Source: Candidatus Aminicenantes bacterium (GTDB lineage Bacteria; Acidobacteriota; Aminicenantia; Aminicenantales; JAFGBC01). Taken from it: DNA of 64,000 nt. The position numbers and the translations under genes were made by a program. The first letter of the stretch is position 1. The number at the start of each line of letters is the position of its first letter. The stretch is from assembly GCA_963702005.1 (NCBI GenBank), contig OY969696.1:1664001-1728000 (forward strand), read 5' to 3'. The notes under the pieces were generated by a model. It did not search any database. It was not told the origin of the DNA and saw nothing but the letters and a program-made list of their open reading frames with translations. Positions 24,061-52,274 of this stretch are shown here, piece after piece.

Positions 24061-24984
24061 ATGACCGGCGAACCTAGTCACCCGGACGCCCTGAGCGGGG
24101 TCGAGGCCCGCTTTCCCGGCCTGGTCGACCGGGTCCGCCGCCTGATCGAGGAATCCGAGCGGGCCTACAACGGCAAAACGCGGGACGAGGGCTCGAGCTT
24201 CCTCTGGGAGCATACCGTCCACGTCGCGTCCTATGCCCAGCGAATCGCCCTCGCCGAAAAGCGGGACCCCGTCCCGGACGTCCTGGCGGCGCTCTTTCAT
24301 GACGCCGGCAAGTTCCGGGGCGGACGGTATCATCCCGGCCAAGAGCCGGAGGAAGAAGCGGCCGCGGCCGCCGCCCGGATGATCCTCCCCGAGTTCGCCG
24401 TCCCCACGGGCCTGATCGAGGACATCGTCTCGGGCCTGAGAACCCTCTACAAAGAGAAACGGCCCGCTCATCCTCTGGCGGCGGTCGTCCACGACGCGGA
24501 CTTCCTCTCCAAGTCCGGGTCGCTCGGCGTCGCCCATTTCTTCGTCAAGTCCACGCTCCGGGGCCGGACCCTGCGCGACGCGGTCATGAACACCCTGAGC
24601 AAGGAGCTGACCTACGCCGCAGTCCTTCCGCTCAACATGAGGACCGGCGCCGGCCGCGCCCTGGCCCGGATCAAGTCCCGGGACGCGCTCCGCTTCTTCG
24701 ACCGCTTCCTGGTCGAGCTCAACGAGGCCTCTCCGCCCGGCTTCCGAGTCGAAACGTTAAGAATTCGGGGGACACATGACTTAATTCGGGAATTAAGTCA
24801 TGTGTCCCCCGAATTCATCAAGGTACGGCTGGTCGTTCCGACGGCCTGCGAGCGATGCGGAGGGCCGTGGGCATTTGAGCCGTCGGTCGCCGAGGGCGTC
24901 AAGTGCCGCGAGCTCCGCGTCCTTATCCACTGCCGAAGTTGCGATAACAGGTCCGAGATCTCCTTCTGCCTGCCCGAGCTGTAA
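24061..24984 (+). CDS. HD-domain protein with C-terminal Cys-rich zinc-ribbon-like region
   Basis: EHTVHV, ALFHDAGK, HDADFL; CERC...CRSC. Confidence 0.8.
   Translation: MTGEPSHPDALSGVEARFPGLVDRVRRLIEESERAYNGKTRDEGSSFLWEHTVHVASYAQRIALAEKRDPVPDVLAALFHDAGKFRGGRYHPGQEPEEEAAAAAARMILPEFAVPTGLIEDIVSGLRTLYKEKRPAHPLAAVVHDADFLSKSGSLGVAHFFVKSTLRGRTLRDAVMNTLSKELTYAAVLPLNMRTGAGRALARIKSRDALRFFDRFLVELNEASPPGFRVETLRIRGTHDLIRELSHVSPEFIKVRLVVPTACERCGGPWAFEPSVAEGVKCRELRVLIHCRSCDNRSEISFCLPEL
24761..24816. repeat. palindromic element in frame inside the HD gene
   Basis: perfect 27-bp arms GAATTCGGGGGACACATGACTTAATTC with a 2-nt centre. Confidence 0.95.
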
Positions 24985-25176
24985 CGAATAAAATTCATTA
25001 TGGAAACATCGCGAGTTCTGTGATTTCCGGAACGATGGAGCGAGGACCGCTTTTAAAACCCTCCCATCACATAAAAAGAGATGCTTACATCCATTATATG
25101 GATCTTGTTTCCCCCCGCTAGATGGACGATAATGAACCTTCATGGCTGAGCCGCCAAGGTTCTGAAAGGAGTCCTC

Positions 25177-26475
25177 ATGTCTATATCCCGCCGCAAGTTC
25201 ATTCGGAACGGAGCGCTAAGTGTGGCCTCCCTCGGCCTCGCTTCGAAAAAAATTCTGGGGACACACGACTTAATTCCTGAATTAAGTCGTGTGTCCCCAG
25301 AATTACGGTCCGGAGAGAGCTCTCTTCAGAACATGGTCGCGGGCGTCGTCCCGATCGCTCCCGAGGATTACGAGAAGCGTCTCGAAAGGGCCCGGCGTCT
25401 CATGGCCGACAACGCCATCGACGCCCTGTTCGTGGGCGGCGGCATGAACCTCGTCTACTTCACTAAGGTTTCCTGGTGGCTGAGCGAGCGCCCGTTCGGG
25501 ATGGTCCTCGGCCGTAAGAAGCCGCCCATCTGGATCTCGCCCGCCTTCGAGTTGCCGCGGGCCCAGGAGCTCATCCCCTCCGGCCAAGAAATTCGCGTTT
25601 GGGAAGAGCACGAAAATCCTTACAAGTTAGTTGCCGGGATCTTAGCCGACTTAGGCGCGGGATCGGGCCGGTTCGCCCTGGCCCCCGACCTCCGCTCCTT
25701 CGAAGTCTTCGGCCTGCGGACGAACTGCGCCCCAACCGAAGTCGTCAACGGGGCGGTCGTCACCGAGGGATGCCGCGGCGTCAAATCCGAGAAAGAAATC
25801 GCCTTCATGGACCTTGCCAACAGGATCACCAAAATCGCCTACCGGGAAGGATTCAAGAGCCTCCGCGGGGGAATGAGCCCGCGCGACCTGGCCGGCGCGA
25901 TCGCGGCCGCCCACCAGACGCTCGGGGTTTCGGGCGGCGGCGGGCCCCAATTCGGGCCCAACACGGCCTACCCCCACGGCTCCCAAGTGGCGCGGACGCT
26001 CCAGCCCGGCGACGCCGTCCTTGTCGACGGCGGCTGTTCCGTCGAGGGCTATCGATCGGACATCACGCGGACCGTCGTCTTCGGAGCGCCCTCGGACAAG
26101 CACCGCCGCGTCTGGGACGTCGTCAAGCGGGCCCAGACGGCCGCCCTCCAGGCCGTCCGTCCGGGCGCGACCTGCGAATCCGTGGACCGGGCCGCCCGCA
26201 AGGTCGTCGAGGACGCGGGGTTCGGCCCCGATTATAAGTTTTTCACGCATCGGCTCGGCCACGGGATCGGGATGGAGGGGCACGAATACCCCTACCTCGT
26301 CCGCGGCAATACGCTCAAGCTCGAGCCGGGGATGACCTTTTCCAACGAGCCCGGGATCTACATCTACGGCGAATTCGGGATCAGGATCGAGGACTGCATG
26401 GTCGTCACCGAAGACGGGGGCCGCATCCTGGGCGGCATGTCGGCCGTCTCCCTCGAACAGCCCTTCGGCGACTGA
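25177..26475 (+). CDS. Tat-exported Xaa-Pro peptidase (M24)
   Basis: SRRKFI; YPHG, VDGGC..GYRSDITRT, HRLGHGIGMEGHE, SNEPGIY, GIRIED. Confidence 0.92.
   Translation: MSISRRKFIRNGALSVASLGLASKKILGTHDLIPELSRVSPELRSGESSLQNMVAGVVPIAPEDYEKRLERARRLMADNAIDALFVGGGMNLVYFTKVSWWLSERPFGMVLGRKKPPIWISPAFELPRAQELIPSGQEIRVWEEHENPYKLVAGILADLGAGSGRFALAPDLRSFEVFGLRTNCAPTEVVNGAVVTEGCRGVKSEKEIAFMDLANRITKIAYREGFKSLRGGMSPRDLAGAIAAAHQTLGVSGGGGPQFGPNTAYPHGSQVARTLQPGDAVLVDGGCSVEGYRSDITRTVVFGAPSDKHRRVWDVVKRAQTAALQAVRPGATCESVDRAARKVVEDAGFGPDYKFFTHRLGHGIGMEGHEYPYLVRGNTLKLEPGMTFSNEPGIYIYGEFGIRIEDCMVVTEDGGRILGGMSAVSLEQPFGD
25251..25304. repeat. palindromic element in frame inside the M24 peptidase gene
   Basis: perfect 26-bp arms AATTCTGGGGACACACGACTTAATTC with a 2-nt centre; 54 nt. 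Confidence 0.95.
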
Positions 26476-52221: not shown

Positions 52222-52274
52222 AATTCCGGGGACACGATACCAAATCAAGAGATTTAGTTCATGTCTCCGGAATT
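52222..52274. repeat. diverged intergenic copy of the AATTC-GGGGACAC palindromic element
   Basis: AATTCCGGGGACACGATACCAAATC ... GATTTAGTTCATGTCTCCGGAATT, 53 nt. Confidence 0.75.

Follow-up and report, generated by a model that had tools for sequence, protein, structure and literature searches.

Genes for RAYT-like transposases that are flanked by long inverted repeats instead of REP hairpins have been named TIRYTs or TIRtrons (Di Nocera et al. 2013, BMC Genomics 14:522; PMC3733652). According to the sections of that paper used here, many of the repeats share the motif GGGGWSAS, some overlap the 3' end of the gene and some are members of families of moderate abundance, which comprise singles, dimers and clusters; a sharply delimited group of TIRYTs occurs in Acidobacteria only (PMC3733652). 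Quentin et al. (2018; PMC6006769) treat most TIRYTs as equivalent to TnpA-REP subclass 2.1. The TnpA proteins of IS200/IS605 and the TnpA-REP of E. coli are described in the sections used as Y1/HUH enzymes which cut and rejoin single-stranded DNA at folded ends (PMC3733652, PMC6006769). Here we analysed two palindromes situated in frame in two adjacent genes of a Candidatus Aminicenantes bacterium, within a stretch of 64,000 nt (the window; contig OY969696.1 of assembly GCA_963702005.1, positions 1,664,001 to 1,728,000). We consider it likely that these palindromes are minimal dimers of a genus-restricted inverted-repeat family, which is serviced by one chromosomal RAYT-like transposase of the TIRYT/TIRtron type and whose arms are renewed from a master sequence. 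Positions refer to the window unless given as genome positions.

The two palindromes are each 54 nt long and perfect. The first, AATTCGGGGGACACATGACTTAATTC-GG-GAATTAAGTCATGTGTCCCCCGAATT, is located at 24762–24815 in a gene for an HD-domain protein, and the second, AATTCTGGGGACACACGACTTAATTC-CT-GAATTAAGTCGTGTGTCCCCAGAATT, at 25251–25304 in the adjacent gene for an M24 peptidase, 489 nt away from start to start; neither is assigned a strand. In both, two arms of 26 nt with 100% complementarity enclose a 2-nt centre. Besides the centre, two positions of the arm distinguish the copies, and at each of them the change is found on both sides (G..C vs T..A; T..A vs C..G). The GC content of the palindromes is 0.44 (HD) and 0.43 (M24), compared with 0.67 and 0.65 for the remainder of the host genes. 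As RNA, they are predicted to fold with −45.6 kcal/mol (z −10.5; HD) and −42.3 kcal/mol (z −9.0; M24), and none of 200 shuffled sequences was as stable. A first-pass annotation of the window had described two AT-rich, perfect 54-nt hairpins about 490 nt apart with paired differences, and this description holds.

The HD gene (24061–24984, plus strand) codes for 307 aa; its product is phosphohydrolase-like, with an HD domain (Pfam HD, 35 bits) and a Cys-rich beta domain at the C-terminus. The gene is followed, after an AT-rich intergenic spacer of 192 nt (24985–25176), by the M24 gene (25177–26475, plus strand), which codes for a 432-aa member of the M24 Xaa-Pro peptidase family with a twin-arginine-like signal at the N-terminus (Pfam Peptidase_M24, 203 bits; Creatinase_N, 40 bits). 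Stop codons are present in two of the three plus-strand frames of each palindrome, and the only open frame, reading IRGTHDLIRELSHVSPE(F) or ILGTHDLIPELSRVSPE(L), is the frame of its host open reading frame (ORF). Nearly the same 18-aa peptide is thereby contained in both proteins, as had been annotated: the HD palindrome encodes residues 235–252 (IRGTHDLIRELSHVSPEF), and the M24 palindrome encodes ILGTHDLIPELSRVSPEL immediately C-terminal of a hydrophobic N-terminal stretch with an RR motif.

Downstream of the insert the HD protein has the residues C263, C266, C282, C291, and C294, which are invariant among the 11 orthologues aligned; therefore, the reading frame continues through the element. 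In the AlphaFold model of this protein (mean predicted local distance difference test score, pLDDT, 81.9) the insert forms a loop between the strands 228–236 and 252–260, and the block 241–250 has the lowest confidence in that half of the protein (pLDDT 57). The M24 insert had been placed just behind a twin-arginine (Tat) signal. An RR-motif hydrophobic stretch does precede the insert (SRRKFI, seen in the sequence only; the orthologues keep RRxF), but no match of a signal hidden Markov model was reported for it.

Both palindromes are members of a repeat family that is dispersed over the host genome, a single contig of 4.31 Mb with 60.4% GC. The terminus AATTCNGGGGACA (AATTC.GGGGACA) occurs 133 times on both strands, compared with 0.39 occurrences expected from the base composition. 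With one mismatch allowed, the termini resolve to 119 loci, 59 of which are facing pairs within 200 nt (a count including one spurious 4-nt self-overlap) and the remainder solo arms. The first-pass annotation had suggested scanning the genome for further copies, and the scan was successful. Sub-family A has the arm AATTCNGGGGACACACGACTTAATTC, and 36 pairs fit this pattern with lengths of 53–56 nt (12 pairs) and about 63–98 nt, one pair measuring 123 nt. Of the 12 minimal dimers, six have a length of exactly 54 nt, by which the frame is kept. The arms of this sub-family are nearly always identical, the 19-mer GGGGACACACGACTTAATT being found in 84 exact occurrences. A single arm AATTCNGGGGACACACGACTTAATTC contains no internal complement and no GTAG tag, and two arms are needed for a hairpin. 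Both in-gene copies are minimal dimers of two sub-family A arms, of the variant ATGAC in the HD gene and of the variant ACGAC, the majority variant of the genome, in the M24 gene.

The sub-families B (53 nt, imperfect), C (56 nt), and D (56 nt) have only the outer 13 nt in common with sub-family A. A third copy in the window, at 52222–52274 (no strand assigned), belongs to sub-family B; this imperfect hairpin of 53 nt has the outer terminus AATTCNGGGGACA and other inner arms (−32 kcal/mol, z −6.7) and looks non-coding. The arms of a pair are separated by 1 to about 70 nt, and these spacers are mutually unrelated. For the 18 spacers of at least 18 nt the mean best local alignment score was 6.33 compared with 5.93 for shuffled sequences, and one pair scored 13 versus a null maximum of 12. 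The spacers were also compared with the ends of the RAYT element, of which they could be remnants, and no similarity was found.

Two arrangements of arms elsewhere in the genome were recorded in addition. At genome position 676644–676772 a head-to-tail array of about five units of 16–21 nt, each starting with AATTC[CT]AGGGACA, ends in a 56-nt hairpin of sub-family C; here truncated termini stand in tandem. At genome position 1171849–1174105 inverted arms 2245 nt apart enclose a gene pair for the permease and the ATPase of an ATP-binding cassette (ABC) transporter, and at the left end of this unit a syntenic arm is present in the congener G001.

A Y1/RAYT gene flanked by the same arms, which the first-pass annotation had proposed to look for, was found at genome position 2326404–2327203 on the minus strand. 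An ORF of 217–219 aa lies between two inverted family arms 788 nt apart. The gene is bracketed by a perfect 28-nt inverted repeat and its stop codon is inside one of the arms. The protein matches Pfam Y1_Tnp with 55 bits (residues 13–125); the best NCBIfam model is REP_Tyr_transpos NF047646 (61.1 bits, E 1e-16), compared with 23.8 bits for the IS200 model. The motifs HVH, WQ, and YVERNP are found at residues 60, 99, and 119, respectively. This is the only gene of its subfamily in the genome, the next match having 33% identity. The 14 Y1_Tnp matches of the genome consist of 11 copies of a 150-aa IS200-type TnpA and three single genes, and of the latter only the RAYT gene is arm-flanked; no GGGGACA was found within about 500–700 nt of the other two single genes (714331 and 3854866). 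The 11 near-identical TnpA copies constitute a separate insertion sequence (IS; about 137 bits to Y1_Tnp) at genome positions 717274, 1259993, 1524908, 1832480, 1845480, 2083742, 2579953, 2614818, 3162563, 3577622, and 3781633.

Homologues of the RAYT protein at 50–56% identity are common in the order, and matches at 49–62% identity were obtained in 13 of 30 relatives, including an orthologue in the congener G001 (G000 denotes the present genome; G001 and G002 are congeners). Inverted repeats of 16–32 nt flank the gene in 9 of the 14 RAYT or homologue loci fetched across the order, the locus of this genome included, and several of these repeats carry related motifs such as GGTGACACAC and GGGGGACACC. 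Four loci from Achromobacter with 28% identity to the RAYT were set aside and not used.

The locus thus resembles a TIRtron in several respects. Long inverted repeats without self-complementarity enclose a RAYT-like Y1/HUH gene, the motif GGGGWSAS (in the sections cited of PMC3733652 and PMC6006769) is matched by GGGGACAC, which is present in family arms including both RAYT-flanking ones, one repeat overlaps the 3' end of the gene, and the repeat forms a dispersed family, here with 84 exact arms, 59 pairs, solo arms, and clusters. It differs in its lineage, which is Aminicenantes-like to judge by how close homologues of the M24 protein and the RAYT are named, in the perfect back-to-back dimers situated in frame in genes and in arm types that are species-specific at orthologous sites. 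TnpA-REP subclass 2.1 is described as having a C-terminal, DnaA-C-like helix-turn-helix (PMC6006769, in the part cited). Pfam reports only Y1_Tnp here, and residues 126–217 are without a match.

How often the family enters genes was assessed with a home-made codon log-odds model and no gene caller, by which each pair was checked for an ORF running across it with coding potential to either side; the count covers the pairs only. A spanning ORF was listed for 40 of 58 pairs, and besides the HD and M24 genes the 11 longest were inspected. All 11 were rejected as genes with inserts, as they look like either shadow ORFs (e.g., 1303481–1304737) or cases with the element upstream of a visible real start, which was recognised by a downstream signal peptide or ATPase N-terminus. 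Only the HD and M24 copies, two of the 59 pairs, are truly intragenic. The remaining family is extragenic and clustered like REP-like elements, most copies adjoining gene ends or starts. It had been put forward that the element family creates new protein sequence. The family is real, but with only two of 59 pairs in genes the creation of new protein sequence is the exception for it.

This low share also separates the family from the Rickettsia palindromic elements (RPEs), which it otherwise resembles by description. In the passages cited, RPEs are palindromic repeats in frame in unrelated genes that add a tolerated, family-specific peptide; they are about 100–150 bp long, a large share of them lies in genes, and these passages link no transposase to them (PMC10969869, PMC3733652). 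Here the unit has 54 nt, and frequent in-frame insertion into ORFs is not a trait of the family. Another likeness is to GTAG/CGTC REPs within ORFs, where short repeats lie wholly in open genes and the same gene can be tagged at about the same site in related species (PMC3733652, in the sections used); here, however, the repeat class has long arms and no tag. The family had been thought undescribed in this lineage. For repeats of this kind in Aminicenantes nothing relevant was found in the literature, searched apart from the supplements of PMC3733652 (list of REP-tagged ORFs and TIRYT alignment), but the kind itself is in print in the sections cited of that paper. TIRYTs/TIRtrons, in-gene REPs, and in-frame palindromic elements are already published, and what is new is the lineage.

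The arm type is species-specific, orthologous sites included. The arm GGGGACACACGACTTAATT (ACGAC) occurs 84 times in G000, once in G001 and five times in G002, and the arm GGGGACACATCACTTAATT (ATCAC) twice, 41 times and not at all, respectively. We fetched 20 regions of G001 around ATCAC arms, 16 of which map to syntenic positions of G000 with an element (flanks 77–92% identical). At the resulting 17 orthologous loci (these 16 and the M24 site; the RAYT flanks are included) 27 of the 29 G000 arms are of the type ACGAC and two of the type ATCAC, the latter each being one arm of a pair, at genome positions 2277732 and 3762611. G001 has the RAYT gene itself at the syntenic position, between ATCAC arms, and the RAYT proteins of the two genomes are 61% identical compared with 87% for the M24 proteins.

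The same switch is seen within the coding region. In the M24 gene both arms are ACGAC in G000 and ATCAC in G001, so that the peptide GTHDLI..LSRVSPE with residues D and R is found in the former and GTHHLI..LSDVSPE with H and D in the latter; in the HD copy both arms are of a third variant, ATGAC. Since the arm types equal the majority type of each genome, the three paired differences at the M24 site represent an arm-type switch and not three independent compensatory substitutions, and since the arms follow a species-specific master sequence at this site, the coded peptide follows the master sequence of the repeat family. The spacers at the same site are often wholly different between the two genomes (1 vs 33 nt at genome position 750909, 46 vs 4 nt at 611412), and at 2988597 and 2287661 they are partly kept.

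Two further loci differ between the congeners. In G001 (locus L042, G001:C142:600-3600) a 794-nt stretch containing a 188-aa ORF is enclosed by two elements, at 967–1082 and 1876–1994, that have nearly the same 116-nt sequence even in the spacer; in G000 a single element with another spacer is found at the syntenic site (2294576–2294642). This is one case of a whole element duplicated together with its spacer. At genome position 3687130–3688030, compared with locus L044, G001 has a complete hairpin whereas G000 has the right arm only, preceded by about 900 nt that are not in G001 and that end AT-rich; the difference looks like an insertion or a replacement at the element.

REPIN–RAYT systems, reportedly described by Bertels and Rainey in 2011, are the other group to which the family has to be compared. 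Common to both are a single, vertically inherited, and syntenic RAYT, inverted doublets able to form hairpins and mostly extragenic, clustered copies. In Pseudomonas, according to the part cited of the REPORTH preprint, REPINs kept at a given position come to match the predominant RAYT with time, and modification or replacement of REPINs by RAYTs is considered possible (10.1101/2024.10.14.618302); the elements described here likewise change at orthologous positions to match the RAYT of the genome. Orthologous RAYTs flanked by different repeat classes in related strains are also described (Nunvar et al. 2013; PMC3686654, in the passage cited). Different from REPINs are the arm, which is no palindrome and has no GTAG tag, and the unrelated spacers. 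Because the spacers are unrelated, doublet and spacer are not a copied unit, and the family is not a REPIN family in the strict sense.

For the orthologue alignments each protein of this genome was compared with 11 relatives, 10 of which are from other families of the order. The insert is absent from all 10 other-family orthologues, for M24 and for HD alike. An orthologue gap of about 18 aa had been predicted; a gap is present at both sites, but it measures 13 columns in M24 and 8 columns in HD. It is not a clean gap of 18 because both sites are length-variable linkers. The typical length of the M24 orthologues is 420 aa compared with 432 aa here. Within the genus, the M24 gene of G001 carries the orthologous insert as a perfect palindrome, and the HD gene of G002 carries an insert with an intact right arm, a decayed left arm and the frame kept. 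In other families searched the HD and M24 genes are on separate contigs; their adjacency may be specific to the genus.

Metagenome orthologues of the M24 protein show a graded series. Those with 87% and 85% identity to the protein of this genome have IPGTHNLIRELSDVSPEL at the insert site, one with 80% has RFGPEF..GRVSPEL, one with 79% ..GVSPQL and one with 78% ..SRVSAEL; in those with 72% identity and below nothing recognisable is left. This decay series and the congener copies indicate that the insertions are old and that the proteins tolerate the peptide without depending on it. No clean pair of a filled and an empty site was recovered; the AATT at the outer ends belongs to the palindrome and a target-site duplication is not distinguishable from it.

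Independent DNA backs the hairpins. The HD hairpin is spanned by Logan contigs of wetland metagenomes (X3 record 17, X4 record 26, and X1 record 2), and at the M24 hairpin such contigs contain the halves, each attached to its proper flank, and end near the centre of the palindrome. Among the contigs examined, which cannot reveal rare empty sites, no empty-site joint was found at either hairpin. One 200-nt skip (25077 to 25278) was considered as an empty site and rejected, as it carries 18 foreign letters and derives from another repeat copy. In four metagenome runs the summed contig depth at 25218–25319 is 24–196 over the M24 hairpin compared with about 3–8 beside it; this rise reflects a multi-copy repeat and a de Bruijn break and is no signal of gene copy number.

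Taken together, the interpretation given in the first-pass annotation is supported in its essentials, and the following course of events can be envisaged. In an ancestor of the genus, copies would have inserted into two adjacent genes, at places coding for linkers or loops. As the 54-nt unit keeps the frame and offers one stop-free frame of three, surviving copies would add the same 18 residues to both proteins. The peptide would be tolerated but not needed, decaying like a neutral linker in some relatives, while in this genome and in the congener a perfect hairpin would be kept as the arms are renewed from a master sequence that matches the RAYT-flanking arms of each species. The RAYT presumably recognises the conserved outer part of the arm, which is common to all four sub-families, and could cut and rejoin single-stranded arms exposed during replication, either as hairpins or as single arms. 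It would then be the agent of both the spread and the renewal or replacement of arms. The renewal could proceed by excision and re-insertion at the same site, by enzyme-mediated exchange of arms or by ordinary gene conversion.

Several points weigh against this explanation. Plain copy-paste of whole hairpins would leave the unrelated spacers unexplained. At the 17 orthologous loci, 33 of the 35 G001 arms are ATCAC by construction, as these loci were chosen by their ATCAC arms; the unbiased parts of the comparison are the G000 side of the 17-locus table and the genome-wide counts. At some loci there may have been independent insertions at the same site in each species. The match to the NCBIfam RAYT model (61 bits) is under the curated cut-off of 80 bits, and the 11 IS200-type TnpA copies and the two other single Y1 genes coexist with the RAYT in the genome and could act on the arms as well. 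Lastly, the repeats are not classical REPs, since these are imperfect palindromes of 20–40 nt with a 5' GTAG (or CGTC) tag and the arms here are neither self-complementary nor tagged with GTAG.

That renewal takes place arm by arm is favoured by the unrelated spacers, by the pairs with one switched arm at two loci and by the solo arms. This leads to a bolder proposal, namely that the repeat family rewrites 18 residues of a conserved enzyme at their site with the single 26-nt arm as the unit, the RAYT acting as a site-directed editor of short DNA segments, including coding ones, and not as a mover of whole elements. We put it forward tentatively and regard it as somewhat less probable than its opposite.

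Three other explanations were considered. First, the host could keep the hairpins for a function of its own, as pause, stability or protein-binding sites in mRNA or DNA, so that the palindromy would reflect selection at each locus. The very stable RNA hairpins and the location of most copies next to gene ends or starts would fit, as would the compensatory differences between the copies and the perfect M24-site palindrome in both G000 and G001; the first-pass annotation had concluded from such differences that the hairpin itself is what is preserved. However, the HD copy of G002 has lost its left arm with the gene still open, M24 orthologues at 78–80% identity hold remnants only (e.g., GRVSPEL and SRVSAEL), and the paired changes at the M24 site correspond to the majority arm type of each genome, which fits renewal throughout the family and not selection on a locus. 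The compensatory differences are therefore better explained by replacement of whole arms or their conversion to the master sequence of the family than by selection on each hairpin, and we judge a host function improbable.

Second, the elements could be classical miniature inverted-repeat transposable elements, that is internally deleted copies of a DDE-type IS moved by cut-and-paste with a target-site duplication. They do have long terminal inverted repeats and variable interiors, and the AATT at both outer ends could be read as a palindromic 4-nt duplication. Yet with all arms of the genome listed, no DDE transposase was found between arms; inverted arms with wide spacing stand around the RAYT gene (788 nt) and around the two-gene ABC transporter unit (2245 nt), the interiors have no shared sequence among themselves or with the ends of the RAYT element, and homologous RAYT genes elsewhere have their own flanking repeats. 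This origin thus appears very unlikely. Third, that the 18 residues are ancestral in the proteins, as the shared peptide taken alone would allow, or that the hairpins are assembly artefacts is hardly credible, given that the 10 other-family orthologues of both proteins are without the insert and that the same DNA occurs at dozens of non-coding sites and is carried by two other assemblies and by metagenome contigs from three studies.

With a RAYT-serviced repeat family with renewed arms as the preferred explanation, the two genes are a clean example from nature of a repeat family, linked to a transposase, that wrote the same peptide into two unrelated enzymes, with copies old enough to be traced in relatives as perfect, half-decayed, and nearly erased states. 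The case extends RAYT systems with terminal inverted repeats to an uncultured lineage that is common in the environment. In addition, it provides a read-out in coding sequence for an open question on REPINs, namely whether resident repeats are replaced or converted by RAYTs at their sites, as each arm conversion here alters amino acids and can be followed in protein alignments. This species-specific rewriting of arms at fixed sites, visible in protein sequence, is the part most worth following up.

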